A stretch of 62,855 bases of DNA from an uncultured Clostridia bacterium (lineage in GTDB: Bacteria > Bacillota > Clostridia > Lachnospirales > Anaerotignaceae). The position numbers and the translations under genes were made by a program. The DNA lies in assembly GCA_944380455.1 (NCBI GenBank), contig CALWHR010000161.1, positions 1 to 62,855 on the forward strand, read 5' to 3'. Below are positions 26,717 through 43,821 of this stretch, in pieces; position 1 is the stretch's first letter, and each line of letters starts with the position of its first letter. The notes below the pieces were generated by a model, which saw nothing but the letters and a program-made list of their open reading frames with translations, was not told the DNA's origin and searched no databases.

Positions 26717-26742
26717 AAAGGACGCATTAAATGCGTCCTTTT
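26717..26742 (+). terminator. Intrinsic terminator after holA
   Basis: AAAGGACGCAT-TAA-ATGCGTCCTTT. Confidence 0.8.
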
Positions 26743-26926
26743 GTATGGAATAATAAAGTGTGGGCTGTTTGGCTGCATTATATATAAAAATATTGGGGAT
26801 GAAGTAAAGAAAGTTTAAACAACCCAAGCACATTGTTTTTATCTCCGGCTATTTAAAGCCGGAGAGTAGGAAATGGTTTTAATAAAGAAAAGGATGTTTT
26901 CTTTATGGAGTGCTTTATTATTAATA

Positions 26927-27148: not shown

Positions 27149-27182
27149 TAAAATTCACTCCTTTTAAAAATCCGTAAAAAGC

Positions 27183-27283
27183 AAAAAGGCGGACAACTCC
27201 TAAGAAGTGTCCACCTTGACATCAGTATTATTAATATATTTATCTAACGCAAACATTATAATACCTATGCTTAAAATTTACAA
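27183..27283 (-). promoter_or_regulatory. SigA promoter followed by a leader terminator upstream of the HTH gene
   Basis: Minus strand TTGTAA(27283)-17 bp-TATAAT(27260); AAGGTGGACA...TGTCCGCCTTTTT hairpin at 27217-27183. Confidence 0.6.
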
Positions 27284-27328
27284 TACTTTTTTTATAATTT
27301 TTACCAAAAATTTTATGTCACTGAGGCA

Positions 27329-27571
27329 TTAAGAATTAAGCTTCTGCCTCCCCTCATTATCCATGTAATAGTTATCTTTATATATAAGCTCGCTGATAGG
27401 TACGATTTCATAGCCTTTTTCTTTAAGTCCTTTTAAAATTGTATCCAGCACCTGCGGCGTGTATTTAGCATCATTATGGAAAAGAATAATTGAACCGTTT
27501 GAGAGATGCTTGTGGTTAAGCACCTGGTTTATCTCAGCTTCCGGACCTTGTTCTTTCCAGTCAAGAGAATC
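27329..27571 (-). CDS. pdaB: 3' half of split PdaB-type polysaccharide deacetylase (80 aa, no proper start)
   Basis: In frame from 27571: DSLDWKEQGPEAEINQVLNHKHLSNGSIILFHND...GYEIVPISELI, carrying NodB motifs 4 and 5. Confidence 0.9.
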   Translation of the reverse strand, partial: DSLDWKEQGPEAEINQVLNHKHLSNGSIILFHNDAKYTPQVLDTILKGLKEKGYEIVPISELIYKDNYYMDNEGRQKLNS

Positions 27572-27592
27572 AGTAAACGCCAGAGAATAAAA
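27570..27592. other. Left recombination (att) site of the intervening element
   Basis: Core TC at 27570-27571 (GA on minus) followed by arm AGTAAACGCCAGAGAATAAAA, 17/21 inverted match to the right-end arm. Confidence 0.88.
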
Positions 27593-27639
27593 TGTTTTGT
27601 TTAAAATATAATATAAAAAAAGACAAAGGCGGTTTTTAA

Positions 27640-28980
27640 ATGGATGCCATTTATGTCAGACAGTCTGTAGATAAAAAAGACAGTATATCTATAGAAGCTC
27701 AGACGGAGATGTGTGTTTTGCAGGCAAATGATGAGTATACTGTTTTTGCAGACAAGGGTTTTTCAGGCAAAAACATAAACAGGCCGGCGTTTAAAAATAT
27801 GATGAGCCTGGTTAGAAGCAGAAAAATTAACCGTATTATTGTGTACAGAATAGATAGACTAAGTCGTTCTATAGCGGATTTTTCGATTTTCTGGCGTGAG
27901 ATAGAAAAGTACGGTGTTGAATTTATGTCTGTTAATGAAAAATTTGATACTTCATCGCCAATCGGCCGGGCTATGCTTTATATTATAATGAGCTTTGCTC
28001 AGCTGGAGCGTGAAACTATAGCTGAAAGAATACGGGATAATTATTTTGCCAGGTTTAAAAGAGGTGTATGGACCGGCGGACCTGCGCCTTTAGGTTTTGA
28101 TATAGCAAAAGAAAATCTTAACGGAAAAAATGTATCTTATTTAAAAGAGAACTCGGACATTGAAACAGTAAAAGCCATATTCGATACATATTACTCAGGC
28201 AAAAGCCTGTATTTTACAGCAGAAAAAGCTGCCGAAATGAGTCCTGAAAAATACTGGGACAGCCGGGCTATTTCAAGAATAATACGAAATCCGGTTTATG
28301 CCGCCTGCAGCAGCGAGATTTACTGGTACTATATCGAAAAGGGTGCAGAACCCCAGAACGAAGAAACACAATTCAACGGCATTAATGCTGCCATGCTTAC
28401 AGGAAAGGAAGGCGGCTGCGCAAAAAAACTCTCTGTTGCCGGGCACAAAGGCGTTATAGAACCAGATGTGTTTTTAAGCTGTAACAAACGCCTTGATTTA
28501 AACAAACCTGTCTGTATAAACACAAGAGGAAATTATTCTGTATTATCCGGTATATTAAAGTGCGGAAAATGCAAAAAAACAGTTAAAGTAATATATTCCG
28601 GAAAAAAACGGTATCTGTTCTGCTCAAAGGGTTGTTCTGGATTAAAAGACTTTCAGCTTGATAAACTGGAAAGTGATATTATTTCTGACGTTGATAGCTT
28701 AATTAAAAGCTGCTGTGATTGTTTAATGGAAGATGAAAAAAGTGATATTAAATTCAGAATAGGCAATCTTATTAAGGCACTGGAAGAAGGCGGAATAAGT
28801 GCTAAATATATTGAAGAAAGAATAAAAGAGCTTGAAAGTCTGAAAAACGAATGCAAAAAAGTAAACTGTGCTTTGGATATTAAATCTCTGCCGTATGAAC
28901 AGAGAAAACTTTTACTGAATCTTATAGTTGACAAAATAGTTATAAATGGAAAAACTGTCCATATTTTTTATGGATTTTAA
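27640..28980 (+). CDS. Large serine recombinase (SpoIVCA/TnpX-like)
   Basis: AIYVRQS catalytic Ser, DKGFSG.N..RPAF, YRIDRLSR, FAQLERETIAERI, CGKC...C..GC zinc ribbon. Confidence 0.95.
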   Translation: MDAIYVRQSVDKKDSISIEAQTEMCVLQANDEYTVFADKGFSGKNINRPAFKNMMSLVRSRKINRIIVYRIDRLSRSIADFSIFWREIEKYGVEFMSVNEKFDTSSPIGRAMLYIIMSFAQLERETIAERIRDNYFARFKRGVWTGGPAPLGFDIAKENLNGKNVSYLKENSDIETVKAIFDTYYSGKSLYFTAEKAAEMSPEKYWDSRAISRIIRNPVYAACSSEIYWYYIEKGAEPQNEETQFNGINAAMLTGKEGGCAKKLSVAGHKGVIEPDVFLSCNKRLDLNKPVCINTRGNYSVLSGILKCGKCKKTVKVIYSGKKRYLFCSKGCSGLKDFQLDKLESDIISDVDSLIKSCCDCLMEDEKSDIKFRIGNLIKALEEGGISAKYIEERIKELESLKNECKKVNCALDIKSLPYEQRKLLLNLIVDKIVINGKTVHIFYGF

Positions 28981-29052
28981 TATGTGTATTGACAAGAGCA
29001 TTTTTTTAAAATATTCTAATTTTAGAGAAAAGAAATTTCAGGGGGTGTTATT

Positions 29053-29445
29053 ATGTTTGAAAATCTTACTCCGGACGGAAAAATTAAAACCATACGATAT
29101 CTTAAAGCTACCCATGATGATTTTGCCAAGCTTGTTAAAGAAGGCAAAAAAATGATTCAGGATGTTGATGATATGGAGAAAAAAACAGGTATTTCGCCTA
29201 CAGATGCTGAAAGATTGGTTGAGGAAAATCCAAATAAGGAAATAGAAATCGACGGCGAGAAAAAGACTGTTTTATGGCTTTATACATACTATGTAAACAG
29301 AAAGTCAATACTTGAAGGCTATAACAGGGCGTATAAATTCCTTATGGAAGAGGGCGTTGACGAGCTTTTGTTTACTATAGGAGTTGGAAGCGACAGTTAT
29401 GACTACAACTTCTACAAATTCTGCTTAGACGCTTTTGATGAATAA
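29053..29445 (+). CDS. Hypothetical protein, 130 aa
   Basis: GGGGG RBS; own sigA-like promoter TTGACA(28989)-17 bp-TATTCT. Confidence 0.7.
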   Translation: MFENLTPDGKIKTIRYLKATHDDFAKLVKEGKKMIQDVDDMEKKTGISPTDAERLVEENPNKEIEIDGEKKTVLWLYTYYVNRKSILEGYNRAYKFLMEEGVDELLFTIGVGSDSYDYNFYKFCLDAFDE

Positions 29446-29544
29446 TGACCTTAAAACTGCCGCATGCTTATAAGGCACAGACCATAATAAACGCTGTTTT
29501 ATGGTGCAGAGCCTAAAGTATGCGGCTTTTTTGGGAGGTATAAA

Positions 29545-30204
29545 ATGAAAATTGAACTTGCCATATTCGATATGGACGGACTTATATTCGATTCAGAAAG
29601 AGCTTTTGAAAGTGAGCTGAAAGAAGTAATGCTCTCTTACGGCTACAGCCTTACATGGGATATTTATAAAAGCACCATAGGCCTTACAGGTCAAAGGCTG
29701 AAAGAAAAAATGCTGTTAAACTACGGCAGTAATTATCCCTTTGAGGAAGTAAGCAAAAAAGCAAGACAAAGAGTGAATTCTTTATCACAGTCAGGCAAAA
29801 TAGATATTAAAAAAGGCATACCGGAGCTTTTGAAATTTTTTAATGACGAAGGTATTAAATGTGCTGTTGCTTCATCTACCAAAAGTGAGTATGTTGATTT
29901 ATATTTAAAGTCAGCAGGGCTAAGAAAGTATTTTAACTCAATAACAGGCGGAGAAGAAACAGAGCGCTCAAAGCCTGAGCCGGATATATTTCTGACGGCG
30001 TGTAAAAAAGAAAACACTGCTCCGGAAAATACAGTTGTTTTTGAGGATTCGCCAAATGGTGTTACAGCTGCATTAAGGGCAGGTATGAATGTAATCTGCA
30101 TACCGGATTTGGTTTGTCCGCCTAAAGAGCTTCTTAAAAATACTTTGTTTGTGGCAAAAGATGCTTTTGAGGCTATGGAGTTTATAAAAAATGTTTTGGA
30201 ATAA
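29545..30204 (+). CDS. HAD-family phosphatase
   Basis: FDMDG, VASS, KPEPDIF, VFEDSPNG. Confidence 0.9.
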   Translation: MKIELAIFDMDGLIFDSERAFESELKEVMLSYGYSLTWDIYKSTIGLTGQRLKEKMLLNYGSNYPFEEVSKKARQRVNSLSQSGKIDIKKGIPELLKFFNDEGIKCAVASSTKSEYVDLYLKSAGLRKYFNSITGGEETERSKPEPDIFLTACKKENTAPENTVVFEDSPNGVTAALRAGMNVICIPDLVCPPKELLKNTLFVAKDAFEAMEFIKNVLE

Positions 30205-30291
30205 ATGCAATACAGATAATTAATTTATATTGACTGCCCTAAAGGGTGTGTTATATAATTACAAAAATTGTGTACTTTTAAAATTTAGTAT

Positions 30292-30444
30292 TATATGGTG
30301 CCTTTTTTTAGGAAGGATAATAGGGAAACAGGATAAGCCTGTGCGGTCCCGCCGCTGTGTTGACGGAATGTATTTATATTATGTCACTGTTTTAAATGGG
30401 AAGGCGTAAATACGTTGTGATGTCTAAGCCAGAAGACCTGCCAT
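30292..30444 (+). ncRNA. Cobalamin riboswitch
   Basis: AATAGGGAA, GCGGTCCCGCCGCTGT, CACTG..GGGAAGG, AGCCAGAAGACCTGCC; terminator at about 30519-30562; lies upstream of cbiM. Confidence 0.92.
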
Positions 30445-30584
30445 GTAATAAGGAAGCTTATTTGTTGCGGTGTATAACAAATTTGTGTTCAATGGGCTTT
30501 TTTAAAAAGCCTTATTTTGCTGCGCGTATTTGTTGTTGCTTTCAAATACGGGCGGCTTTTTTATTTATCAAAAGGAGGATTTAT

Positions 30585-31334
30585 ATGACAAAGAAAGAAA
30601 AGAAAGTATTTTTATTAACATCAGTTTTGTGCCTGTTTTTTGCTGTTCCACAAAAGGCACAGGCTATGCTCATTATGGAAGGATATCTTCCGCCTAAGGA
30701 CTGCGTTTTGTGGTTTGTATTGTGTATTCCTTTTATTGCTGCGGGATTTATGTCGCTGAAAAAGATAACTGCTGAAAACAAAAAAGCTCTTATTATATTG
30801 GCAATGGCTGGAGCTTTTACATTTGTGCTTTCATCACTTAAAATACCGTCTGTTACAGGCAGCAGTTCACACCCAACAGGAACGGGTTTTGGTGCTGTTA
30901 TATTCGGGCCGTGGGTAATGAGTATTATTGGTGTTATTGTACTTGTTTTTCAGGCACTTCTTTTGGCTCATGGCGGTATTACAACTCTTGGTGCCAATAC
31001 CTTTTCTATGGCTGTGGCAGGTCCTTTTGTGTCTTATGGTGTTTATAAGCTTTGCAGAAAATTAAAAGTCGGAAAGTTTATTTCTGTGGCTTTATCAGCA
31101 GGCTTAGGGGATTTATTTACATACTGTGTAACATCTTTTCAGCTTTCATTGGCTTATCCGTCGCCAAATGGCGGAATAATTATGTCTATGGTTAAGTTTT
31201 TGGCTATATTTGCTGTAACTCAAATACCACTTGCAATTATTGAGGGCATAATAACGGCTTTGGCGTTATCTGCCATTGAAAAAATTTCGGATATAGATTT
31301 TGATAACAAAGGTATTTTAAAAATGGAGGCGTGA
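30585..31334 (+). CDS. cbiM: Cobalt ECF transporter substrate component CbiM (His2 replaced by Leu)
   Basis: Signal peptide, then MLIMEGYLPP, VTGSSSHPTG, LAHGGITTLGAN; ATG 30585 behind AAGGAGG. Confidence 0.9.
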   Translation: MTKKEKKVFLLTSVLCLFFAVPQKAQAMLIMEGYLPPKDCVLWFVLCIPFIAAGFMSLKKITAENKKALIILAMAGAFTFVLSSLKIPSVTGSSSHPTGTGFGAVIFGPWVMSIIGVIVLVFQALLLAHGGITTLGANTFSMAVAGPFVSYGVYKLCRKLKVGKFISVALSAGLGDLFTYCVTSFQLSLAYPSPNGGIIMSMVKFLAIFAVTQIPLAIIEGIITALALSAIEKISDIDFDNKGILKMEA

Positions 31335-31338
31335 AAAT

Positions 31339-31641
31339 ATGAATTTATCTCTTAAAAAAGTTATTGCTTGTTTGTTAGTTTGTGTTGCTATAGCAGTTTT
31401 TCCCATTTTAACAAACCATACATCTGATTTCGGCGGCTCTGACGATGCAGCAAGTGATGAAATTTCTCAAATAATAGGTCATGAATATGAACCTTGGGCA
31501 TCGCCAGTTTTTGAACCGCCGGGCTCTGAAACTGAATCACTTCTTTTTTGCCTTCAGGCAGCTTTAGGTGCCGGGGTATTTGGTTTTGGATTAGGTGTTC
31601 TTTATGAAAAGAATAAAAAATCCAAAAAAGACACTGTTTAA
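31339..31641 (+). CDS. cbiN: Cobalt transporter CbiN
   Basis: FGGSDD, YEPW.SP.FEPPG.E.ESLLF.LQAALGAG. Confidence 0.9.
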   Translation: MNLSLKKVIACLLVCVAIAVFPILTNHTSDFGGSDDAASDEISQIIGHEYEPWASPVFEPPGSETESLLFCLQAALGAGVFGFGLGVLYEKNKKSKKDTV

Positions 31642-31653
31642 GGGTATGTTTAT

Positions 31654-32424
31654 ATGATTAATTCGGTATATATTACAGAATATATAAAAAATGTAAACCC
31701 AAACATAAAAACAGTTTTTGCATTAAGTGTTATATTATCATGCGTAATATTTAAAGAACCTTTAGGCTGTATATTTGCAATGTCTGTTATGTGGGCATTA
31801 ATTATAAAAAACTGCCGTTTAAGCAGGCATTTAATTTGTCATATTGTTCTGTGGCCGGTTTTGTTTATTGCATTTAGTTCTTTTATGGTGGCATTTGATA
31901 TAACCAATTACAAGGGAGAAATATTTTCTTTTAAAATAATAAATAGTTATTTTTTAACTGTAAATGCACAAGGAGCTAAAAAAGCCATAAGGCTGTTTTT
32001 TACATCTGCTGCGTCTTTAAGCTCAATGTATTTTTTATCTTTTACAACGCCTGTAAATGATGTTGTCTATGTGCTTAAAACCATAAAATGCCCTAAAGAA
32101 ATAACAGAGCTTTTTATGCTCATTTACAGGTTTATATTTATTGTGCTTAATATGGCACACAGCATTATTACAGCGCAGAATTGCCGCATGGCACAAAGGA
32201 CATTTAAAACACGCATTAATGCTATGGCACTTATGCTCTCCAGTGTTTTTGTGCTTTCCTATAATAAGTCGCTTTTTATGTATAATGCCATGTTAAGCCG
32301 GTGTTACAGCGGAGATATTAATTTTTTAAATGAAAAGTATGACAATAACAGAAAACATGTGCTCTTTGCTGTAGTTGTTGTTTTAGTTATTGTTTTAATA
32401 AGTGCTTTGGAGCGTGTATTTTAA
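31654..32424 (+). CDS. cbiQ: Cobalt ECF transmembrane component CbiQ
   Basis: FTTP, ELFMLIYRFIF, AQ..R, AMLSRCY. Confidence 0.85.
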   Translation: MINSVYITEYIKNVNPNIKTVFALSVILSCVIFKEPLGCIFAMSVMWALIIKNCRLSRHLICHIVLWPVLFIAFSSFMVAFDITNYKGEIFSFKIINSYFLTVNAQGAKKAIRLFFTSAASLSSMYFLSFTTPVNDVVYVLKTIKCPKEITELFMLIYRFIFIVLNMAHSIITAQNCRMAQRTFKTRINAMALMLSSVFVLSYNKSLFMYNAMLSRCYSGDINFLNEKYDNNRKHVLFAVVVVLVIVLISALERVF

Positions 32425-33251
32425 TGGATTATATTATTAATACCAAGGGTTTAAGCTACAGCTACCATAACGGACAAAAGGCTCTTTTTGATGTTAATAT
32501 AGCCATAAAACCGGGAGAAAAAACAGCTGTTATAGGTTCAAACGGTTCGGGAAAATCCACATTATTTCTGTGTTTAAACGGCATAAACAAGCCACAAAAA
32601 GGAGATGTATTTTTTAAAGGCAATAAAATTGATTATTCATCAAAAGGACTTTTAAATTTAAGGCGGTCTGTGGGAATAGTTTTTCAAAATCCTGATGATA
32701 TGATATTTTCTTCAAGTGTAAGGCAGGACATAGCTTTTGGGCTTTTGAATATGGGTTTTTCAAACAGTCAGGCAGAAGAAAAAATAAAGAGCATTTCAAA
32801 ATTTCTAAATTTGGAAGGCCTTCTTGATAAGCCTGTTCATGAATTAAGCGGAGGAGAGAAAAAAAGAGTTTCTCTTGCCGGTGTTATGGTTATGGAACCG
32901 GAAGTTATTATACTTGATGAGCCGGGAGCATATCTTGATACTTTAAATGCCAAAACAGTTTACAAAATAATAGACAGTTTAAGCCAAAAAGGCAAAACTG
33001 TTATTATATCAAGCCACAACATGGACTTTGTTTTAAACTGGGCCGACAGTGTAATTGTGCTAAAAGAGGGAAAAGTGGTTTTTAACGGCAGAACAGAAGA
33101 TTTGTTTTTAAATAATGAGCTTTTGAACTTTGCTGTCTTAGATGAGCCCCAAATAATAAAAATCTATAATATGCTTATAAATAAAGGTGTTATAGAAGCT
33201 GGTGCTCCTGTGCCTAAAAACATAACAGAGCTTGAAATGCTTATTAAGTAA
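32424..33251 (+). CDS. cbiO: Cobalt ECF ATPase CbiO
   Basis: GSNGSGKST, VFQNPDD, LSGGEKKR, ILDEP. Confidence 0.9.
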   Translation: MDYIINTKGLSYSYHNGQKALFDVNIAIKPGEKTAVIGSNGSGKSTLFLCLNGINKPQKGDVFFKGNKIDYSSKGLLNLRRSVGIVFQNPDDMIFSSSVRQDIAFGLLNMGFSNSQAEEKIKSISKFLNLEGLLDKPVHELSGGEKKRVSLAGVMVMEPEVIILDEPGAYLDTLNAKTVYKIIDSLSQKGKTVIISSHNMDFVLNWADSVIVLKEGKVVFNGRTEDLFLNNELLNFAVLDEPQIIKIYNMLINKGVIEAGAPVPKNITELEMLIK

Positions 33252-33310
33252 TCTTTTAATACAGCCTTTGTAATGGTATACTTTATTTATAACATTTAGG
33301 AGGGCATAAA

Positions 33311-33994
33311 ATGGATTTTTATTTTTCAGGTGATTTGGATAATTTAAAAGATTATATTGATTTTAACAGCATTGATTTAAGCAGTGTGGGCGGTTATGAC
33401 AAAACAGAGTTTAAGTTTTTTAACGGCAAAACGCCGGATACGGATGACTTGATTATATCTGTAGACGGGTATTTTGACCCGGAATATGATATTCTTGGAA
33501 GCAGGTTTTTGTTTGTTGTTGCTCCTGACGAAAAAGAGCTTAAAAAAGCTCTTTCTCAGGCGGAGAAAAAGGAAGCGCAGTTACCGTTTTTCCCTATGGA
33601 CTGGGAAGCAGACGGAAAAGAAAGATATATTTTAAGCTATGTTTTGTGCTTTGATAATTTTAAGGATTGCGCTCAGATGGCAATGGTGCTAATGGACAGC
33701 ATAAAAGGAAATGGATTTTTTAATCTGGATTTAGACGCTTTTAACGATGAGTTCGGTACAAAAAGCGGAAGTTTAAAAATAATAAAAAGCGCCCAAAAAG
33801 AAGAACTTATTAAAGATAATTCTCTTAAAGGCACTTTTACCGTTTTTTACTGCAACAAAGACAAAGACGCTATGGAGCTTATTTATGAGAGCAGGAAAGA
33901 CTTTTCTTTTGAAAACTCACCTTCCAACAGCCATTTTTTACAGCTGTTTTATGTAAATGACGAAACGAATTATAAATGCTTTTACTGGCGTTAA
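33311..33994 (+). CDS. Hypothetical protein
   Basis: AGGAGG RBS, 227-aa ORF, no confident family. Confidence 0.65.
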   Translation: MDFYFSGDLDNLKDYIDFNSIDLSSVGGYDKTEFKFFNGKTPDTDDLIISVDGYFDPEYDILGSRFLFVVAPDEKELKKALSQAEKKEAQLPFFPMDWEADGKERYILSYVLCFDNFKDCAQMAMVLMDSIKGNGFFNLDLDAFNDEFGTKSGSLKIIKSAQKEELIKDNSLKGTFTVFYCNKDKDAMELIYESRKDFSFENSPSNSHFLQLFYVNDETNYKCFYWR

Positions 33995-34560
33995 ACGGTG
34001 ATTAAACCGGCCATACCCAAAATTATTCCTATTACTGCCGAAAGCACAATAACAAGTATAGGGTGTACCTTTTTAATACAGCCTGCTGTTGAAAGGGCAA
34101 ATATGCCTAATGATGCCAAAAGCAGTGGACTTATTTCAAAGCTTTCCTGCCAAAAAGGCGAAAAAACGGTTATAAATACTGATAAAACTGAGGAGAGTAC
34201 AAGGGCACAGGCTGCCGGTCTTAAACCGAACAAAGCACCTTTTACTGCCCAATGATTGCTGAAAGCTTTATAACAGCGGGCAAGTATAAGTATGACTATA
34301 AAAGACGGCGCCACAACTCCGCCTGTAGCGCATACAGCGCCTAAAACACCGGCAGAACGCATGCCTATATATGTGGAAATATTAATGGCAAAAGGGCCGG
34401 GAGTGCTTTCGCTTATGGCAAGAAAGTTAACAAGTTCTTCCATAGTTGTCCAGCCGTGGTTTAAAACCTCGGTTTGTATAAGGGGAAGCATGGCGTATCC
34501 GCCGCCGAATGTAAATGCGCCTATTTTAAAGAAGGTTATAAAAAGTGTAATGTATATCAT
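33991..34560 (-). CDS. Short-chain chromate transporter (CHR) subunit
   Basis: KIGAFTFGGGYAM, SESTPGP, GLRPA. Confidence 0.9.
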   Translation of the reverse strand: MIYITLFITFFKIGAFTFGGGYAMLPLIQTEVLNHGWTTMEELVNFLAISESTPGPFAINISTYIGMRSAGVLGAVCATGGVVAPSFIVILILARCYKAFSNHWAVKGALFGLRPAACALVLSSVLSVFITVFSPFWQESFEISPLLLASLGIFALSTAGCIKKVHPILVIVLSAVIGIILGMAGLITV

Positions 34561-35105
34561 TGTTTTGAGTCCTCCTTTTTTGTAACAGCGGCACGTATTA
34601 TGCCTGCGGCGGCGCAGAAAATAAGCATTAAAATGGCGTTTATTTTAAATACAGCTACACATATAAATGTAAGTATAATAAGAAATACATTAACTGGCGT
34701 TTTTTTAAAGCTTTTATAAACAGACAAAAATGCGTTTATTATAAGCGATAAAACGCCTATTCTTATGCCGTAAAAGGCAAATGATACAATTTTATTTTCT
34801 TTAAAGGCTTCTATAAAGAATGAGAGTATGGCTATTATAGCAAATGACGGAACTACAACTCCAAGGGTGGCGGCTGCGGCGCCTAAGAAGCCATGTTTTT
34901 TGTAGCCTACAAATGTGGCAATATTTACGGCTAAAGAGCCCGGAGTACTTTCGCTTAGTGAAATCATGTCTATAAGCTCGTTATAAGAAATATATTTGTG
35001 TCTGTCAACAACTTCATGCTGTATAAGTGGGAGCATAGCGTAGCCTCCGCCAAATGTAAAAGCACCTATTTTGGCAAATATGATGAAAAGATTTAAGCAG
35101 TCCAG
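34557..35105 (-). CDS. Short-chain chromate transporter (CHR) subunit, probable CTG start
   Basis: Frame extends upstream of ATG 35036 through KIGAFTFGGGYA to CTG 35105, which lies behind AAGGAG. Confidence 0.82.
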   Translation of the reverse strand: MDCLNLFIIFAKIGAFTFGGGYAMLPLIQHEVVDRHKYISYNELIDMISLSESTPGSLAVNIATFVGYKKHGFLGAAAATLGVVVPSFAIIAILSFFIEAFKENKIVSFAFYGIRIGVLSLIINAFLSVYKSFKKTPVNVFLIILTFICVAVFKINAILMLIFCAAAGIIRAAVTKKEDSKQ

Positions 35106-35252
35106 TTTAATCAGCTCCTTAAAAAGTTTAAGCAGGTTTTAGTTTACAGCCATGTTTAAGCATTGTCAAATCAAAATACAGAAAATAAAACAAAAAAGTA
35201 CGAATTTCTTAAAGATTTTCGTACTTTTTATTTGTGTCATTTATATTAATTT

Positions 35253-36428
35253 TTACTCAAGGCAGCCTAAAACTGTGGCAAAGAACTTTGTGCGCTCTTT
35301 AATTGACGGCATGTTTACACATTCGTCAACCGTATGTATGTCTTTAAATTCTGCCGAAAGGGCATCTACAGTAGGTATGCCAAGGGAGCTGAAATATGCT
35401 CCGTCGGTAGCTCCCGGAACATAAAGCTCATTAATTTCCATGCCCAAAAGCTCAGCAGGCTTTTTAAGTGTGTTAAATGCTTTTGTATTCTGAGGTCCTT
35501 TTTCCATAGCAGGAAAAAGTGTATGATATTTTACTTTTACCTTGCAGCCTTCAACTGTAACACTGTTTTCAAGGGATTTAAGATTTGCTTCTACGGCAGC
35601 AAAATCTGAATTATAAGGTATTCCAGCAACACAAAATTCACAGTGAGCGCTTCCGGCTACAATACCGTTTGGTCTTCCGCCTGAAACAGGGGCTACGTTA
35701 TAATAAATGCCTTTTTCGTAATCGTTGAAGTTATAAAACTCAATTATTTTGTGCGCCATTTCAAGTATGGCACTGCGGCCTTCAAGGTAAGCACAGCCGG
35801 CATGAGATTCTTTTCCCTCAATATCCATAGTGCCAAGTATTACTCCGCGGCGGGCAGTTACAAAACCATCTTTGCCGTCTTCTTTTTCGGCACCTTCAAA
35901 AACAAAGGCATATTCTGCATTTTGAGCTTCTTTTGCATATAATTTGCTGCCGGAAGCTGTGCCAATTTCCTCGTCGCAGTTGAATATAAACTCAATTTCC
36001 TTGTTTGGAAGAAGTCCGGCGTCCTGCATAGCTTTTACAGCAAATATTGAAATCATAACACCGCTTTTGCAGTCAGCTATGCCAAGACCGTAAGCCCAGT
36101 CGCCTTCAATATGAAAAGGATGAGATGCTGTAAAGCCTTCACCAAAAACCGTGTCTATATGTCCGTTAAGTATTATTTTGCCGTTTGGGTTTTGTGGTGT
36201 TATTTTTGCTGTTATATGGCGGCCAAGGCCTTTTTCGTGGTGTATTTCAACATCAGCACCCATTGATACAAGTAAGTCTTTTAATAAATTTACTACTTTT
36301 TCGTTGCCTTCTTCGTTTCCTGTGCCGCAGTCTATAGCTGAGAATTTTTTTAAGTATTCCATTTGGGAAGGAAAGTATTTTTCGGCACCTTCTGTAGCAG
36401 CTTTAACTATTTTTTCGTAATCTTTCAT
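35253..36428 (-). CDS. M20-family metallo-amidohydrolase/peptidase
   Basis: GHIDTV, GIADCKSG, DEE.G, FE, HAG, GATDG, HTVDE. Confidence 0.88.
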   Translation of the reverse strand: MKDYEKIVKAATEGAEKYFPSQMEYLKKFSAIDCGTGNEEGNEKVVNLLKDLLVSMGADVEIHHEKGLGRHITAKITPQNPNGKIILNGHIDTVFGEGFTASHPFHIEGDWAYGLGIADCKSGVMISIFAVKAMQDAGLLPNKEIEFIFNCDEEIGTASGSKLYAKEAQNAEYAFVFEGAEKEDGKDGFVTARRGVILGTMDIEGKESHAGCAYLEGRSAILEMAHKIIEFYNFNDYEKGIYYNVAPVSGGRPNGIVAGSAHCEFCVAGIPYNSDFAAVEANLKSLENSVTVEGCKVKVKYHTLFPAMEKGPQNTKAFNTLKKPAELLGMEINELYVPGATDGAYFSSLGIPTVDALSAEFKDIHTVDECVNMPSIKERTKFFATVLGCLE

Positions 36429-37519
36429 TGTACTTCATCTTCTCCCATGTAATAATCCTGGTCTATACAGTCGGTATAAACTTCCGAAACATCTATTTTT
36501 TCGTTTAAAAGGCCGTTGTCATAAAGCCAGTTTATGTTTTCAAGATAGCAGTTAGGGTCCTGTGCAAGGAAAGGAGAGAACTCTTTTTCCATCATAGGCA
36601 AAAGTATATTTATGCTCTCTGTTTCAACTTCCGGGTCAAGAGGGAAGTTGTCCTCGTTTTGGTTTGCAAGAAGAATGTTAAGTGTTCCTTCCGGGTCTGT
36701 TTTCATGTCGTAAAAGCCTTTTGAGCATGCTCTTAAAAAGCTATGGTATTTTTCGTAGTTTTCATCAATACTGTCTTTGCCGGCAACAAAAACAAGTGAG
36801 TAATAGTTTGGCACCCCATATTCAGAAGGAACAAAGTAGCTCATAGGGAAGCCTTCTTTTTCAAGCTGAGGTATCTCGTGGTTTATAAAGCAGCCGAATG
36901 TAGCATCTACATTTCCTGTTGTCATGGCGCTCATAAGGTCAAAGCCTACGTTTATTAGATTTACTTTGTCTATTGAAGAGCCGTCACTTTCCATCATGGC
37001 ATTAATTACTGCCTCGCTGAAAGCCACACCTGTATAGCCAAGTGTTTTGCCTTCAAGGTCTTTAGGGCGGGTTATATTTTTTTCGCTTAAAGAAGCTATA
37101 AGGTCAAGAGGTTCCTGAACTACAGAGCCTATTATTTTAACTGGAACATCTTCGTTAGCTATAGCCATAATTATATCGTCCTGATAATAAAGACCAGCGT
37201 CTGCTTTGCCTGCTGCTGTAAGTGATATGGCATCATTGCTGTTTGAAGGGAAAAGAATATTTACGTTAAGGCCTTCCTCTGCAAAATAGCCTTTTTCTAT
37301 TGCGTCATAAATAAAAGCATGTACAGCATTAGGGTACCAGTCAAGAACAAGGTCAAAGTCCTCAAGCTCTGTATTTTCAGATGTTTCACTTCCTGATGCG
37401 GAAGAAGAGCTTTGAACTGAGCTTCCTGAAACGGCTGATGATGTGCTGCCTGATGAGCAGCCGGCAAGGCATGATACAGTAAGTACTGCTGTAAGTGCCA
37501 TGGTGATAAGTTTTTTCAT
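36425..37519 (-). CDS. NMT1/THI5-family lipoprotein (ThiY-like pyrimidine-binding protein)
   Basis: Lipobox LAGC, LDWYPNAVH, FINHE, YGVPNYY; downstream of a TPP riboswitch. Confidence 0.87.
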   Translation of the reverse strand: MKKLITMALTAVLTVSCLAGCSSGSTSSAVSGSSVQSSSSASGSETSENTELEDFDLVLDWYPNAVHAFIYDAIEKGYFAEEGLNVNILFPSNSNDAISLTAAGKADAGLYYQDDIIMAIANEDVPVKIIGSVVQEPLDLIASLSEKNITRPKDLEGKTLGYTGVAFSEAVINAMMESDGSSIDKVNLINVGFDLMSAMTTGNVDATFGCFINHEIPQLEKEGFPMSYFVPSEYGVPNYYSLVFVAGKDSIDENYEKYHSFLRACSKGFYDMKTDPEGTLNILLANQNEDNFPLDPEVETESINILLPMMEKEFSPFLAQDPNCYLENINWLYDNGLLNEKIDVSEVYTDCIDQDYYMGEDEVQ

Positions 37520-37555
37520 TTTTGAATTTCCTCCTTTTTGTGTTAATCTGCGGAC

Positions 37556-37686
37556 AAAAAAATCCTTCCACTAAGGGAAGGATATAATAATCTTTTTATT
37601 TTGTATGCTTCCCTACGCTGGTATTAACCAACAGGTTCAAAGGGTCAGGTTTTAACCTTCTCAACATAAAGTTCCCCCGCAGATAT
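37556..37686 (-). ncRNA. TPP riboswitch with terminator
   Basis: Minus strand GCGGGGGAAC..TTGAGA...ACCCTTTGAACCTG.TGGTTAATACCAGCGTAGGGAAGC, then ATCCTTCC..GGAAGGAT-T run. Confidence 0.93.
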
Positions 37687-37827
37687 TTAATTTACAGATT
37701 CATTATACAGCAAATACTGGAAATTACAACATAAATTTAATATAAAACGACATGTATTAAAAATTTATTTTAAGTAAAGAACCAGTGCGCTGTAAGTTTT
37801 GTGTCTTATAACGCACTGTTTTTTATT

Positions 37828-40800
37828 TTACTGTCTTACCTGATGGTCTTTAAACTTTGAACCGAAAAGCTTATTTTTTGTTTTTTTAGAAACATTTTTT
37901 AAACGTATCGCCTCAACAGCAGAGTATAAAACAGGTATGAAGAAAAGAGTTACAAGTGTTGATATTGAAAGACCGAATATAATAGCTACAGCCATAGGAC
38001 GCTGCATTTCGGTACCTTCTCCAATGGCAAGTGCCATAGGAACCATACCTATAACTGTTGTAAGTGTTGTCATAAGTATAGGTCTTAAACGGTTAGGTCC
38101 GGCTTCCTCAAGAGCTTCTATACATTCCATGCCGCGACCCCTAAGCTGGTTTGTATAGTCAATAAGCACGATACCGTTATTAACAACCATGCCGACAAGC
38201 ATGATAAAGCCCATAAATGTAACAGATGTAATAGAATTTCCTGTTATAAAAAGACCAAATACAGCGCCTGTTATAGCAAGAGGTACGGCAAACATAATAA
38301 GGAAAGGATGAATAAGTGATTCAAACTGAGAAGCCATTATCATGTAAACCAGGGCAAGAGCTACAACAAGAGCTAAAAGCAGACTCTGGAATGTTTCAAC
38401 CATTGTTTCTATATCGCCTGTAAACTCATAACTGCATCCATCTGGGAATGAATACTGGTTAAGGAGATTTACTATGTTCTTTTGAGCCTGATTAGAATCT
38501 ATTCCATTAAGGTTTAAACCTATAGTAAGGTATTTATGGTTGTCTTTACGAGTTATGCTTGTTGCAGATTCATCAGTTGAAATATCTACAACATCTGTTA
38601 TAGGTATTATTCCTCTTGATGTCTGTATTGTAACTTTCTGAAGGTCGTTTAAATAATTTACGCGGTCTTCATCATCTTGAATAATAACATCTATTTCATC
38701 GCCGTCTATTTTATACGTTGTAGCGGTGCTGCCGTTTACGGCAGTTGAAAGAGTGCTGGCTACAGCTGATGTTGTTAGGCCGTACTGAGAAGCTTTTTCT
38801 CTGTTTATAACTACGTTTGCTTCAAGTACGCTTGTTTCTGATGAGTTAACAACATCTTTTGCCCAAGGCTGCTGCTCAAGAAGCTTTTCTATTTCATATC
38901 CTGCCTGACGGAGATTGTCAATATCGTCACCGTTTATCTGTATTTCTACGTCATTTGCTCCTGAGTATGAGCCCATGGCTGAGCTTGATGAAGATACGCT
39001 GATATCAGCACCAGGGATGGTTTTAACACGTTCTTTTATATCTTCAACAATTTCGTCCGTTGAGCGGTCACGCTCTTTTACGCTTACAAAGTTAAGATAA
39101 ATAGAAGCTGTATCTGTTTGGCTTGAACCTGTAAGCATTGAAGCTGTGCTTGAGCCTGCCATAATATAATATTCTTCTGTTTCAGGTATGTCGCTAATGC
39201 GGTTCATAACTTCATTAACAACATTTGTTGTTTCGTCTATTACAGTACCAGAAGGCATTTCGATACTTATTGAAGCCGAGCCTTCATCCATAGTAGGCAT
39301 AAGGTCAAAGCCAACAATTGGTATAAGACCAATTGATATTATAAATATCAATGTTGTAACCAAAAGAGTTCTTTTTTTGCGTCTTAATACAAAATGAAGT
39401 GCTTTTCTGTAAGATGAATCAAGCTTATTAAGGACTGCCTCCCATTTATTGAGAAGCCTGCCTATAGGACCGCCTTTTGAAAGATTTTCTGCACTTCTTT
39501 CTTCATGAACAAGAAGCTTGGAGCAGGCCATAGGCACAAATGTAAGTGACACTACAAGAGATGCGCCCAAAGAGAAGCATACTGTAAGTGAAAGGTCTTT
39601 AAACAGCTGGCCTATTGTACCGGAAACAAACATAAGCGGTATAAATACAGCTACAGTTGTAAGAGTTGAGGCCATAACCGAAAGTCCCACTTCCGAAGCA
39701 CCTGTTTCGGCAGCTTCTTTTGCCGGATAACCCTTTGAGTGGTATTTATATATATTTTCAAGCACAACAATGGAGTTATCTACAAGCATACCTATACCTA
39801 TTGTAATACCGCCTAATGATATTATGTTAAGGGTCATATCGCAGGCATACATTAAGGCAAATGTTGCTACAATTGATGTAGGTATTGAAACTGCTATAAT
39901 AGCTGATGTACTTATACTTCTGAGGAATATGAAGAGCACTATAACAGCAAGTATAGCAGCCTGAAAAGCTGTTGTAAGCACGTTATTTACCGATGTTCTG
40001 ATATAATCCGATGTATCAGAGAGCATTTTTATGCTTAAATCAGGGTACTGCTGACTTATTTTGGCTATTTCAGCGTTTATTTTATCTGAAATATCAACTA
40101 TATTGGCATCAGACTGTTTGCTTATTGCCATAATAACGCTTTTACTGCCGTTAACTATTGCATATGAGTTTTCGTCCTCTGTTGTAAGCTCAACATCAGC
40201 TACATCTCTTAAACGCACAGTGCTTCCGCCTGATGTTGTAAGAATTATATTTTTTATATCATCAAGAGATTTAAATTCGCCTACGGTTTTAGCCGTTATT
40301 TTTGTTGAGCCGTTAGTAATCTGACCTATGGGCATATTAATGTTTTCTGCTTTAAGGGCGTTTGTAATTTGTGATGCCGATATGCCGTAGCCATTCATTT
40401 TATTGCTGTTTAGTGTAATATTTACAACATCGTTTAATCCGCCTATTACGCTGACGGAAGCTACGCCATCTATTTTTTCAATATCGCTTGATACATTTTC
40501 GTCAACAAATTCTGTAAGCTCGGCTATATCCATTTTTTCAGAACCTACGCCTACTACTATTGAAGACATTTCATTTATATCCAGCTTCATAACCATTGGC
40601 TCACTGGCATCATCTGGCAGAGTACCTTTTATAAGGTCTATTTTTTCCCTAAGGTCAGAAGCGGCTGTATCTATGTTTGTTCCGTCAACAAACTGAATCA
40701 TAACCATTGACGAGTTTGATGAGGAGGTGGAAGAAACGGTATCTACATTGCTTACGGTACCTACAGCTTCTTCTATAGGTTTTGTAATAAGGTTTTCAAT

Positions 40801-40971
40801 TTCTTCAGGGCCTGCGCCTACATAAGTTGTGCTGACTATAGCCATTGGTATATCCATAGAAGGCATAAGGTCGAGCTTTAATGTTGAAAGTGATATAACG
40901 CCGGCAAGTATTACTATTAATATTGCCATAACAGTAGTTACCGGGCGTTTTATAGCTGTTTTAATAGGCAT
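37828..40971 (-). CDS. RND efflux permease (AcrB/SwrC-like)
   Basis: IKRPV, GMLVDNSIVVLENI, GMVVNNGIVLID, RLRPILMTT. Confidence 0.95.
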   Translation of the reverse strand: MPIKTAIKRPVTTVMAILIVILAGVISLSTLKLDLMPSMDIPMAIVSTTYVGAGPEEIENLITKPIEEAVGTVSNVDTVSSTSSSNSSMVMIQFVDGTNIDTAASDLREKIDLIKGTLPDDASEPMVMKLDINEMSSIVVGVGSEKMDIAELTEFVDENVSSDIEKIDGVASVSVIGGLNDVVNITLNSNKMNGYGISASQITNALKAENINMPIGQITNGSTKITAKTVGEFKSLDDIKNIILTTSGGSTVRLRDVADVELTTEDENSYAIVNGSKSVIMAISKQSDANIVDISDKINAEIAKISQQYPDLSIKMLSDTSDYIRTSVNNVLTTAFQAAILAVIVLFIFLRSISTSAIIAVSIPTSIVATFALMYACDMTLNIISLGGITIGIGMLVDNSIVVLENIYKYHSKGYPAKEAAETGASEVGLSVMASTLTTVAVFIPLMFVSGTIGQLFKDLSLTVCFSLGASLVVSLTFVPMACSKLLVHEERSAENLSKGGPIGRLLNKWEAVLNKLDSSYRKALHFVLRRKKRTLLVTTLIFIISIGLIPIVGFDLMPTMDEGSASISIEMPSGTVIDETTNVVNEVMNRISDIPETEEYYIMAGSSTASMLTGSSQTDTASIYLNFVSVKERDRSTDEIVEDIKERVKTIPGADISVSSSSSAMGSYSGANDVEIQINGDDIDNLRQAGYEIEKLLEQQPWAKDVVNSSETSVLEANVVINREKASQYGLTTSAVASTLSTAVNGSTATTYKIDGDEIDVIIQDDEDRVNYLNDLQKVTIQTSRGIIPITDVVDISTDESATSITRKDNHKYLTIGLNLNGIDSNQAQKNIVNLLNQYSFPDGCSYEFTGDIETMVETFQSLLLALVVALALVYMIMASQFESLIHPFLIMFAVPLAITGAVFGLFITGNSITSVTFMGFIMLVGMVVNNGIVLIDYTNQLRGRGMECIEALEEAGPNRLRPILMTTLTTVIGMVPMALAIGEGTEMQRPMAVAIIFGLSISTLVTLFFIPVLYSAVEAIRLKNVSKKTKNKLFGSKFKDHQVRQ

Positions 40972-40974
40972 TTA

Positions 40975-42375
40975 TTATTCCTCCTTTTTGTCGGAATCAG
41001 CGGAGGATGAGGCTGATGGTGCTGTTTCTTCCGATGTCTGAACTGGTTCTTCACCGTTTAATAAAGCTTCATTGCTTTCAGCGTTGTATGTATCAGGTGC
41101 CACTTCAATATGGTCTCCGTCTTCAAGGTATGTCTGGCCTTTTATTACTACGTCCATATTTTCTGTAAGGCCGCTGGTTATTTCTACTTCGTTTCCGTTT
41201 TCTATGCCTGTTTGAACAGGTGTTTTAACGGCTTTGTTATCTTTCATTACAAATACGTATTTTTCACCGCCTTTGGATATAACGGCATCTACAGGGATAA
41301 CAATTGTTTCATCGCTTTTATCCTTTACAAAGTTTACCTCTCCGAACATGCCGCTTTTTATATTGCCGTCGGCATTGTCTATTTCTATTTCAACGTCATA
41401 TGTTCCGCCTTCATTTGCGGCAGGATTTATGGTTTTAATAGTGCCTATTTTATTTATGCTTGATACAGCAGGTATATTGACAGAAACGGTTTCGCCTGAG
41501 CCTATGGAGTTGATTATTTCTTCTGAAACGCTTACATTCATTGTTACCTTTGATATATCTGAAATTTTAAATGGCTCACTTGAAGCAAGTATTGTTCCGG
41601 CATCAACATTTCGTGCAGTAACATAGCCTGAAATAGGGCTTTTTACAACTGCGTCAGAAAGAGATTTATTATATGAATTAATCTGAGCTACAACACTTTC
41701 TTTTGAAGCTTGAGCAATATTAAGGGCGTCCTGAGCTTTTCTCAGATTTTCTTCAGGCATCTGCATTACAAGGTTATAAGACTCTTTAGCCTGATTATAG
41801 GATATTTCTGCATTGGAATATGCGTCTGAGATATTATCCATATCGGTTTTGCTTATAATGCCGTTTTCATAAAGAACTTTATTGTTTTCATAGTTGGTTT
41901 TAGCTGTGTTGTAAGCTATTTCAGCCTGGCTGAGAGCGTTTTTGGCACTTTCTATCTGGCTTTGCATTGAAGCGCCGTTTACAAGGTCAAGGTTTGTCTG
42001 AGCCGACTGGATATTGGCTTCAACAGAAGCTAAAGAAGCTTCCGCAACCTTTTTTGAATTAAGTATGTCGGATGTATCCATTGTATAAAGTACATCACCG
42101 GCATTTACATAGTCTCCTACGTCAAAATTAACAGATGCTACTTTTCCCTGTATTGTGCCGGAAACAATAAGTTCTTCAACAGGTTTTACAGTGCCGCTGT
42201 AAAGATACTCGTTTTTAATTGATTCTGATGAAGTATTTAATACTTCAACATATGTAACCGGTGTGTTTTCTGCGGAGCTTACAGCTTGACCGTCATCACT
42301 TTTGCCGCAGCCTGTAAAAAGTGATGAGGCAACAACAGCAGCTATTAAAACTGATGGTATAATTCTTTTTTTCAT
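40975..42375 (-). CDS. RND membrane-fusion (adaptor) lipoprotein
   Basis: Lipobox FTGC, lipoyl-like G.V..GD, coiled coil, SPISG.V; ATG 42375. Confidence 0.9.
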   Translation of the reverse strand: MKKRIIPSVLIAAVVASSLFTGCGKSDDGQAVSSAENTPVTYVEVLNTSSESIKNEYLYSGTVKPVEELIVSGTIQGKVASVNFDVGDYVNAGDVLYTMDTSDILNSKKVAEASLASVEANIQSAQTNLDLVNGASMQSQIESAKNALSQAEIAYNTAKTNYENNKVLYENGIISKTDMDNISDAYSNAEISYNQAKESYNLVMQMPEENLRKAQDALNIAQASKESVVAQINSYNKSLSDAVVKSPISGYVTARNVDAGTILASSEPFKISDISKVTMNVSVSEEIINSIGSGETVSVNIPAVSSINKIGTIKTINPAANEGGTYDVEIEIDNADGNIKSGMFGEVNFVKDKSDETIVIPVDAVISKGGEKYVFVMKDNKAVKTPVQTGIENGNEVEITSGLTENMDVVIKGQTYLEDGDHIEVAPDTYNAESNEALLNGEEPVQTSEETAPSASSSADSDKKEE

Positions 42376-42388
42376 TAAAAATATCCTC

Positions 42389-42841
42389 CTATTCAAAAAC
42401 TTTGTTTAAACTGTTAATGCCGATTTTTAAATTTTCTTTCTGCTTTTCATTTAATGTTTTGTAAAAATCAGTGAAGGCTTCGCAAATTATCTCATCGAAT
42501 TTTTTTGTTATTTCCTCACCTTTTGATGTAAGCCGCAAATGAACGGTTCTTTTGTCTTTATCATTGGGCAGCTGTGTTTTATAAAGGAGACCAGATTTTT
42601 CCATTTTTGCTATAGTTAAGGAAAGACTGCTTTTGCTAATGTTAAACAGTTCCTCAAAACCTGAGATGTTGTCTATATCCCCATGCCTTAAAGCTATTAA
42701 AATTTGAAACTGCCTCATGGATATTTCAAACTGGCCTTTGCCGTTTATATTGAATTTATTTCGCATAAAACACCCCAGCCGCATGTTAAACGCAAAAAAA
42801 TCGTTTACAAGTTTTGATAAATTTTCCTGTGAATTTTCCAT
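42389..42841 (-). CDS. MarR-family regulator
   Basis: ISKSSLS..IAKMEKSGL...DKDKR...LTSKG. Confidence 0.85.
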   Translation of the reverse strand: MENSQENLSKLVNDFFAFNMRLGCFMRNKFNINGKGQFEISMRQFQILIALRHGDIDNISGFEELFNISKSSLSLTIAKMEKSGLLYKTQLPNDKDKRTVHLRLTSKGEEITKKFDEIICEAFTDFYKTLNEKQKENLKIGINSLNKVFE

Positions 42842-42890
42842 TTATTTATCGTCTCCGTATTAATAAAAACGCTATACTATATTACGAAAA

Positions 42891-42922
42891 TTGATTTTAC
42901 TATAAAACTATATTTGTGTCAA
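42891..42922 (-). promoter_or_regulatory. SigA promoter and probable MarR operator of the MarR-MFP-RND operon
   Basis: Minus strand TTGACA-17 bp-TAAAAT overlapping an imperfect palindrome. Confidence 0.7.
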
Positions 42923-43077
42923 TATAATTATATTCTTTTAATTTTACGTTATATTCAGCTATTATATTTGAAGGTTTTTATATAAAATATTTAATATTTT
43001 TAATTTTTGTATTTTGGGTTGACAGCACATATAGTTTTGTGATAAAACTAAAATTACAGATTTCAAAAGTGCATTTT

Positions 43078-43100
43078 TTTTATTTACTGGCATTTGCTTC
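43078..43100. other. Right recombination (att) site of the intervening element
   Basis: Arm TTTTATTTACTGGCATTTGCT followed by core TC at 43099-43100. Confidence 0.88.
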
Positions 43101-43634
43101 AACATCCCACTGGATAGGGTAATAGCCGCAGTCATTGGCTGTTTGTATTACAGTGTTGTTGTATTCGCCAAAAGGCGGCCTGAATAAATTCATGCTTATG
43201 CCTGTTAAATTAAGCACTTTTTCATGTGTCTGCTCAAGCTCAGTTTTTATCTGTTCTGATGATAAAGTATTCATATGCGGATGAGTGGCGGAATGATTGC
43301 CTAAATCATGACCGGCTTCGGCAATTTTTTTGACTTCCTCAGGGTATTTGTCTACCCAGTAGCCGCACATGAAAAACGTAGCCTTTACATCGTTTTCACT
43401 AAGTATTCTAAGGAGCTCATCTGTATCATCTGCTCCCCAGGCAGCATCAAAACTGACAGAGATTTTTTTTTCCGGTGTATCTACGCAGTAAATAGGCAGT
43501 TTTCTTTCGCTTTGAGCAAAAGAGCTGAAAACGCTTACTGCTGCCGGGCGGGTAAAAGAGAGCAGGCACAAGGCAAATATACAGGCCGAAATTAAAACAA
43601 ATAAACGCTTTTTTACTTTAAATTTTTTTTTCAT
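43080..43634 (-). CDS. pdaB: 5' half of split PdaB-type polysaccharide deacetylase (178 native aa plus 6 element-derived aa)
   Basis: N-terminal TM, LPIYCVDT, SFDAAWG, GNHSATH, FRPPFG; ends IQWDV|EANASK* before motifs 4 and 5. Confidence 0.92.
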   Translation of the reverse strand: MKKKFKVKKRLFVLISACIFALCLLSFTRPAAVSVFSSFAQSERKLPIYCVDTPEKKISVSFDAAWGADDTDELLRILSENDVKATFFMCGYWVDKYPEEVKKIAEAGHDLGNHSATHPHMNTLSSEQIKTELEQTHEKVLNLTGISMNLFRPPFGEYNNTVIQTANDCGYYPIQWDVEANASK

Positions 43635-43821
43635 ATATTAACACCTCCGGTATAGTATATTAGTAAAAAAGGTTGTTCCTTTACTAATTTATTAGTTAGA
43701 TGTTAATTTTTTTTTAAGGTGCTGGTTTGTAAATAATTTGTAATTGTAATTTAAACTCTATGGCTGTAAAATACCAGTGTAAGGTATTATTTATTGTTTA
43801 TAAGAATGGAGGAATATTTTA

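Follow-up and report, generated by a model that had tools for sequence, protein, structure and literature searches.

Why does a gene for a spore-wall enzyme lie in two halves, some 15 kb apart, with a recombinase between them, and is it ever made whole? Here we address this question in a 62,855-nucleotide (nt) stretch of DNA (the window) from an uncultured Clostridia bacterium of the family Anaerotignaceae (contig CALWHR010000161.1 of assembly GCA_944380455.1), in which a pdaB-type deacetylase gene is interrupted by an element encoding a large serine recombinase (LSR). Programmed gene reconstitution in spore formers has been demonstrated by experiment for only a few genes, most of which belong to Bacillus. 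The present locus adds a spore-wall enzyme gene that is split at one codon in several families of gut Clostridia, evolutionary evidence for use of the rejoined product, and one genome with three split early mother-cell genes. We refer to the genome of the window as G000, to the genomes of relatives as G001 and so on, and to individual loci by L numbers.

A deacetylase gene in two halves

The pdaB-type gene lies on the minus strand in two halves that break at a shared GA dinucleotide, and the two GA cores are 15,529 bp apart (Table 1). Joined in silico at the shared GA, the halves form an open frame of 777 nt that encodes 258 residues and reads IQWDVDSLDWKEQG, and between them they tile the PdaB family model TIGR02764. 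A first-pass annotation made from the sequence alone had described this split, its shared GA, the in-frame joint and a spacer of about 15.5 kb, and both the coordinates and the model tiling agree with that description. Left unjoined, the frame of the 5′ half enters the element and ends after 6 codons (stop at 43080), whereas in G000 no in-frame start precedes the 3′ half upstream of the core, and of 19 genomes only 2 have a start with a ribosome site. Among families, PdaB gives the best match to the split gene: the curated cut-off of TIGR02764 is 237.4 bits, an intact congener protein (81% identical) scores 230.2 and the next family 157.1, and one of 61 relatives exceeds the cut-off, the intact ones mostly falling just under it (230 versus 237.4 bits). 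The NodB motifs are divided between the halves, motifs 1–3 in the 5′ half and 4–5 in the 3′ half in what we take to be the standard numbering. The genome has no other PdaB-type gene, and PdaA is its one further full-length paralogue; sigK is whole, as is a second match, which is sigE-like.

The junctions have the anatomy of attachment (att) sites. Their inner arms form an imperfect inverted repeat with 17 of 22 positions matching, a value that is not attributable to chance because only 1 of 200,000 random sequence pairs reaches it. As the first-pass annotation had noted, an LSR begins 68 nt inside the element; it has resolvase, recombinase and zinc-ribbon domains, and residues Y5, R7, S9, D72, R73 and R76 as well as the zinc-binding cysteines are invariant among 17 aligned LSRs. 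The arrangement might be an artefact of metagenome assembly, since the genome is in 176 contigs and 88.6% complete. Misassembly is nevertheless unlikely, to the point of being negligible, because short contigs of public chicken-gut runs bridge both junctions (junction 27571 in two runs, from two samples of one study, and junction 43099 in one contig), and a single contig contains both halves in each of five other species of the genus, with the same orientation in four; the same break, moreover, recurs in 20 other genomes.

Both halves evolve under strong purifying selection. Between the 3′ half of G000 and those of G002, G006, G003 and G004, we counted 0, 1, 1 and 2 nonsynonymous against 27, 26, 30 and 28 synonymous differences, respectively, which corresponds to dS values of 1.1–1.7 and dN/dS values of 0–0.008 for these four close species; dS is saturated for three further species. 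The strong conservation covers the first 15 codons of the 3′ half. The dN/dS values are 0.02–0.03 for the 5′ half and 0.12–0.14 for the LSR. The arms differ between genomes yet remain complementary within each, with on average 14.1 of 18 positions matching in 36 cognate pairs, compared with 8.6 in non-cognate pairs and 4.9–7.0 when the arms are slid by 1–3 nt; related genomes in these sets are not independent. In the first 19 arm pairs, the cognate mean was reached by none of 100,000 permutations; the arm pair of G000 itself ranked second, not first, among the 19. Purifying selection on a half that has no start implies that the joined product likely matters, and the conservation of this start-less half together with non-coding arms is best explained by recurrent, useful recombination. 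The selection on halves, arms and LSR supports the earlier suggestion of function rather than a dead insertion, and the pdaB element is, in all likelihood, functional.

The split has become fixed in the genus. In seven of the eight other species, the PdaB match ends at model position 130–134 and an LSR (50–75% identity) adjoins the 3′ half, whereas in G008 the gene is whole and no LSR of this kind is present. G008 was placed within the genus (supports 80–86), and its whole pdaB sits amid genes that are cargo in G000. For these two reasons, the intact G008 allele is probably a secondary restoration.

Cargo, distribution and further split genes

The element carries 14 host-type open reading frames (ORFs), classified by Pfam as transporters, enzymes, one regulator and unknowns, as well as two riboswitches (Table 1). 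Pfam found no virion, packaging or replication gene among these 14 ORFs, and the two unknowns have no PHROG match. The G+C content of the element (36.5%) equals that of the genome (36.3%), and the cargo order is common to congeners. We found no second copy of cbiM, cbiN, cbiQ, the NMT1, M20 and HAD genes or marR in the 88.6%-complete assembly; the pump and chromate-transporter genes have paralogues elsewhere in it. With single-copy cargo, excision in growing cells would be costly.

Table 1 Features of the split locus, in window coordinates
Feature	Position	Strand	Remarks
Cro/C1 helix–turn–helix (HTH) gene, 73 aa	26927..27148	-	Just outside the element; conserved beside the 3′ half within the clade
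pdaB-type gene, 3′ half	27329..27571	-	80 codons; TIGR02764 positions 129–191 (67.3 bits); no in-frame start upstream of core
Junction before 3′ half (attR by convention)	27570..27593	-	Inner arm plus GA core 27571–27570; 17/22 inverted match to other arm
LSR, 446 aa	27640..28980	+	68 nt inside junction; has the catalytic residue Ser9 and the four Cys of the zinc ribbon
Conserved protein of unknown function, 130 aa	29053..29445	+	
HAD-family hydrolase (cargo)	29545..30204	+	
Cobalamin riboswitch	30279..30459	+	RF00174, 114.7 bits
cbiMNQO cobalt transporter operon (cargo)	30396..33251	+	cbiM, N and Q single copy in assembly
Conserved protein of unknown function, 227 aa (cargo)	33311..33994	+	
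Two chromate-transporter-family genes (cargo)	33991..35036	-	
NMT1/THI5-like binding protein and M20 peptidase (cargo)	35253..37519	-	Single copy in assembly
TPP riboswitch upstream of NMT1 gene	37592..37688	-	RF00059, 65.9 bits
marR regulator, membrane-fusion protein and RND efflux pump (cargo)	37828..42841	-	
Junction after 5′ half (attL by convention)	43077..43100	-	GA core 43100–43099 plus inner arm; arm symmetry in relatives
pdaB-type deacetylase gene, 5′ half	43099..43634	-	178 codons plus GA; TIGR02764 positions 1–131 (149.7 bits), PF01522

Beyond the 5′ half, the window holds a cluster with a gerA-type receptor operon, spoIIR and a sleB-like hydrolase (45838–50841); on the other flank of the split locus are a Germane-domain gene, comEA/comEC and a tRNA-Gly gene (18190–18260).

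In 21 genomes, G000 among them, the sequence shows both junctions at this GA. In G026, G040 and G055 the break coincides with a contig end at or near the site, in G060 the 5′ junction alone is visible, and G053 has a whole gene plus fragments; in its locus L050 (G053:C1:14500–28000), another 3′ half, which has an att-like junction, comes after the whole pdaB, and a stray internal fragment lies upstream. Across the family, the 3′ half was matched in 108 of 113 genomes, in counts that include short frames at contig ends: the open frame is at most 160 residues in 56 genomes, 161–249 in 11 and at least 250 in 41.

Relatives of the LSR were taken as the 80 best matches among those listed from genome contigs. 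A pdaB half, broken at the same GA, lies within the fetched DNA at 49 of these 80 loci, with the site intact at none, and the relatives at pdaB halves include Lachnospiraceae, Oscillospiraceae, Acutalibacteraceae and Christensenella records. Named isolates in which an LSR relative adjoins a broken site include Clostridium sp. D33t1_170424_F3 (L140) and Pseudoflavonifractor sp. HCP28S3_F10 (L098), where both halves are present (3.9 and 12.5 kb, respectively), as well as Anaerotignum lactatifermentans An390 (L118) and Bengtsoniella intestinalis BP47G (L090). The similarity of its halves to those of named records (L118, L128) likewise makes G000 a likely member of the Lachnospirales, and probably of the Anaerotignaceae. 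At the other 31 loci, a scan of 70 of the 121 flanking frames gave two partial frames as possible sporulation targets, an asparagine synthase (L123) and a manganese catalase (L155). Partial manganese catalase (cotJC-like) or asparagine synthase frames near related LSRs, at L076:8416–8739, L155:11500–12099 and L123:2255–3724, are candidates for further split sporulation genes. An LSR relative also adjoins a pdaB half on 7 of 80 viral contigs; among the best 10 matches listed from GenBank phages, no LSR exceeds 32% identity. The element of G036, at the same GA, is a prophage of 39 kb that encodes a terminase, a portal protein and a helicase, and that of G022 is a 2.8-kb remnant holding an LSR and an amidase. 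In the LSR tree, the genus groups with G027 and genus g5, separately from the prophage LSRs; a fast tree of pdaB had weak support.

Two relatives have their pdaB halves in opposite orientation on one contig, G001 (L011, C40:470–15600; 13.2 kb, enclosing a gerK-type operon) and L112 (7438–11883; 4.4 kb). Rebuilding there would need inversion, and when the segment between the GA cores is inverted in silico, the frame becomes open in both, which are unconfirmed metagenome assemblies. A second break site, in the SFDAAWG motif, occurs in G016, G018, G026, G034, G021, G048, G058 and G111; the first four of these are broken at GA as well, and hence have the gene in three pieces, of which the first was not found for G016 and G034. 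The SFDAAWG break is flanked by distant serine recombinases in G018, G021, G026, G058 and G111, and in G026 (L066, C28:350–11530) an 11-kb element at this motif encloses a trpR-like gene, pcrA/uvrD and ligA, the only full-length NAD-ligase match of that assembly. In G018 (C32:92311–199300; L068, L069), pieces one and two lie about 106 kb apart, with a serine recombinase beside the second. The halves of G020 (C2, C6) and G027 (C1, C9) may be far apart or inverted: the 5′ half faces a contig end 221 kb away in G020 and 165 kb away in G027, where asd and dapA lie downstream. A further break near residue 130–149, at L102:1879–2028 and L143:2664–3151, is likely a third site; a recombinase-like ORF adjoins it in L102.

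The pdaB gene is not the only one split in G000. Its cwlD (C112:235–12402, L251) is divided in the GHGG-DPG motif by about 11.4 kb of DNA with a 503-residue LSR frame and a cluster of pst, phoU, two-component and Na-phosphate genes; the cwlD match starts late in seven of the nine species of the genus, and both parts with an LSR were seen in three congeners. Similarly, spoIIID is in two pieces (C64:1017–1142 and C55:2244–4115; L263, L252), the 3′ piece being preceded by an LSR and a 48-residue ORF with a strong sigma-E-type promoter score, and it is partial in three of eight congeners. Altogether, three of the seven LSR-length resolvase genes found in G000 adjoin split early mother-cell genes (pdaB, cwlD and spoIIID). 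The genome also contains a tandem trio of LSRs (C56:6377–11113) and a further LSR with repeat-like sequence, possibly a CRISPR array, upstream (C51:12443–14191).

How the gene may be rebuilt

We consider it likely that pdaB is rebuilt when the LSR excises the 15.5-kb segment, and that this happens in the mother cell during sporulation. On this proposal, an LSR element, likely phage-derived and now carrying host genes, splits the sole pdaB-type gene at a GA dinucleotide. The LSR likely excises the segment as a circle, probably in the sporulating mother cell only, and excision would restore the 258-residue deacetylase, while the spore would retain the split gene plus the cargo. As the trigger, we weakly favour a directionality factor that comes from elsewhere or is too diverged to recognize; such a factor is proposed because the candidate factor of relatives was not detected in G000.

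That candidate is a 33–50-residue ORF directly upstream of the pdaB-type LSR at 31 of 164 loci examined, 20 of the 31 with a pdaB half in view; in G012 it has 42 residues. A CATA element lies 15–45 nt upstream of the small ORF in 25 of 27 distinct sequences, compared with 2.6 in shuffles; CATA is a mark of sigma-E or sigma-K promoters. The family (for example L016:1399–1524, with 30 other loci) has no NCBIfam match and is a candidate directionality factor with a sigma-E-type promoter. The layout is that of the C. difficile skin element, whose sigma-E-driven factor is CD1234 in the account given in PMC5025042. Two other genes were considered for this function. The 130-residue ORF was rejected as unlikely: it is retained in the LSR-less G008, was not seen beside the LSR in G027 and had no Atlas hit. 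The Cro/C1 HTH gene, just outside the element, occurs in G008 too, as well as next to elements with the small ORF.

Timing in the mother cell would fit what is reported for B. subtilis, where pdaB (spoVIE) is listed in the sigma-E regulon and a null mutant gives 5% spores (PMC4703394), and where SpoIIID binds upstream of ybaN (pdaB) and cwlD is among the genes under sigma-E control (PMC517825).

Several observations weigh against excision in the mother cell. PdaB function in Clostridia is assumed by analogy with Bacillus. In public-run contigs (four runs for each interval), at a depth of about 2–4 and thus with low power, no core-to-core joint was seen over 26000–45000 or 27300–27760. A degenerate circle-junction motif gave 0 stretches in metagenome contigs, a collection uninformative for the genus, and a 3′-half motif gave 0 in metagenome and viral contigs, the split form included, so that its power for the genus is low. 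A long open frame occupies the site in the congener G008 and in 41 of 108 family genomes, and the split is therefore not required. The profile of the small-ORF family had no match in G000 at E < 0.1, none inside the element and, in four near relatives, none better than E 0.06, and a scan for a promoter plus small ORF gave no directionality candidate in the element; the lack of a match is not proof of absence, because directionality factors share no sequence family (PMC12286644, in the part that covers them). A motif trained on the small-ORF promoters scores 0.1 for the pdaB promoter and 3.9 for the LSR promoter of G000, values exceeded by 70% and 26%, respectively, of 660 background upstream regions. 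The same motif scores 13.3 for the small ORF of the G000 spoIIID element (exceeded by 0.2%), and a sigma-70 scan upstream of the LSR was uninformative, with 4 sites versus 2.5 expected. Finally, the LSRs of the genus and of G027 are shortened after the zinc ribbon, with 112–125 residues following the last cysteine in these six compared with 129–155 in the other eleven aligned; this is the region of the coiled coil that sets the direction of the reaction (PMC12286644). Of the skin-like excision proposed by the first-pass annotation, the LSR element at a clean att site, not dead, stands; a rejoined gene or circle was not seen in the low-depth contigs, and the pdaB and LSR promoters do not rise above the sigma-E background. 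That annotation did not include the age and fixation of the split in the genus, the host origin of the cargo or the splits in cwlD and spoIIID.

The shortened coiled coil also admits a different reading, that the LSR rebuilds the gene without a directionality factor or mother-cell timing, through low, unregulated excision or inversion, and that the subpopulation with a whole pdaB makes the good spores. The lack of a candidate factor in this clade, an LSR promoter that is not sigma-E-like, and the assemblies of G026, G040 and G055, whose breaks fall precisely on the site, as a mixture of forms might produce, all fit it. Yet growing cells would then lose single-copy cargo and the intact allele should become fixed, whereas the split is kept in 8 of 9 species across saturated synonymous divergence; moreover, the C. 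difficile skin LSR is constitutively transcribed and still needs its factor (PMC5025042). We therefore regard unregulated rebuilding as improbable. An ordinary or dead mobile insertion at a conserved target, with pdaB inactivated and dispensable, would be consistent with pdaB being the attachment site of this LSR clade, as the viral contigs and the G036 prophage indicate, and with the fact that no excision was seen. An inactive gene would decay, however, and the open frames and strong purifying selection of both halves in the genus largely refute this explanation, while the host-like G+C content and shared cargo order also speak against it; we rate it very improbable.

Selection on both halves would be equally expected if no DNA were rearranged and the halves, expressed separately or joined as RNA or protein, formed a working enzyme beside a remnant LSR; the halves of G020 and G027, at least 165 kb from the contig end, are likewise awkward for excision. 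This explanation has to contend with a 3′ half that is start-less in G000 and preceded by a start with a ribosome site in only two of the 19 genomes, with conservation that starts exactly at the GA, and with arms and catalytic residues that are maintained, while recombination would still be possible between inverted or distant sites. We give it hardly any credence. The excision of the element during sporulation thus remains our preferred explanation. Its extension to the lineage is tentative: former phage integrases may have been turned into a mother-cell genome-editing programme that rebuilds pdaB, cwlD and spoIIID, with elements kept in place by the single-copy host genes that they have captured. 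The LSR of the pdaB element may have shed its own directionality gene and respond to a cue of other origin, such as a sister element's factor, and in some relatives the same sites may serve to restore the gene through inversion or out of three pieces.

Prophage, remnant, host-gene carrier, inverted and restored states at one site make it testable how phage integrases become fixed host switches, and the locus does the same for lock-in by captured host genes and for direction control where a helper gene is lacking. It also provides LSRs of one site-specific clade, their att sites and a candidate family of directionality factors. Automatic annotation will label such genes pseudogenes, so that the sporulation ability of gut bacteria would be understated.

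Comparison with known systems

The first-pass annotation knew of no element described in pdaB, and the literature that we searched, some supplements included, likewise contains none; subscription papers, Abe 2013, the TIGER survey and the bioRxiv supplements lay outside that search and may list pdaB. A genome-based survey of skin-like elements does not mention pdaB in its main text, to which our statement is limited, its supplements not being covered (bioRxiv 2022.02.25.481979). The elements that it describes in cotJC (Laceyella) and spoIIID (Ruminiclostridium cellulolyticum) resemble the present case in resting on genomes and in pairing an LSR with mother-cell genes, and the spoIIID split of G000 is of the same kind as that of R. 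cellulolyticum.

In the passages of the cited papers that describe them, the skin elements of C. difficile (CD1231 with the sigma-E/SpoIIID-driven CD1234; PMC5025042) and B. subtilis (SpoIVCA with Skr; PMC6957869) share with the pdaB element a length of about 15 kb and a single LSR at the edge, beside the 3′ half of the split gene (bioRxiv 2022.02.25.481979). The LSR of the C. difficile element also lacks a sigma-E promoter (PMC5025042), and relatives of the pdaB element have the small sigma-E-type ORF beside their LSR. By contrast, skin splits sigK, which is whole in G000, whereas the target here is an enzyme gene; the small ORF was not detected in this lineage, and spoIIID, which skin excision needs, is itself split in G000. 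The SPbeta prophage in spsM (SprA with SprB; PMC4191935) likewise occurs in prophage and phage-less versions at one attachment site, as do the 39-kb prophage of G036, the 2.8-kb remnant of G022 and the element of G000. It differs in its target gene and LSR, and no phage genes are left in the G000 element.

The closest parallel is gin in gerE of B. cereus ATCC 10987 (GirC with GirX; PMC5595907, as far as that report describes it), a non-phage element with a serine recombinase that splits a sporulation gene, has an imperfect inverted repeat around the crossover and would restore the frame on excision. Its core is 9 bp rather than 2 bp, it has three LSRs rather than one, and it interrupts gerE rather than pdaB. 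Moreover, gin occurs in some strains as a foreign island of low G+C content, whereas the pdaB element has host G+C content and riboswitch-led host operons and occupies 8 of 9 species; a GirX-like factor was not found in it, and its excision is one that we infer. By analogy, the locus would function in the manner of skin and SPbeta and most closely in that of gin (PMC5595907). To these systems it adds genus-wide fixation with measured selection, a cargo of host genes, the lack of a recognizable helper gene, relatives with inverted halves, and a genome in which three genes are split.

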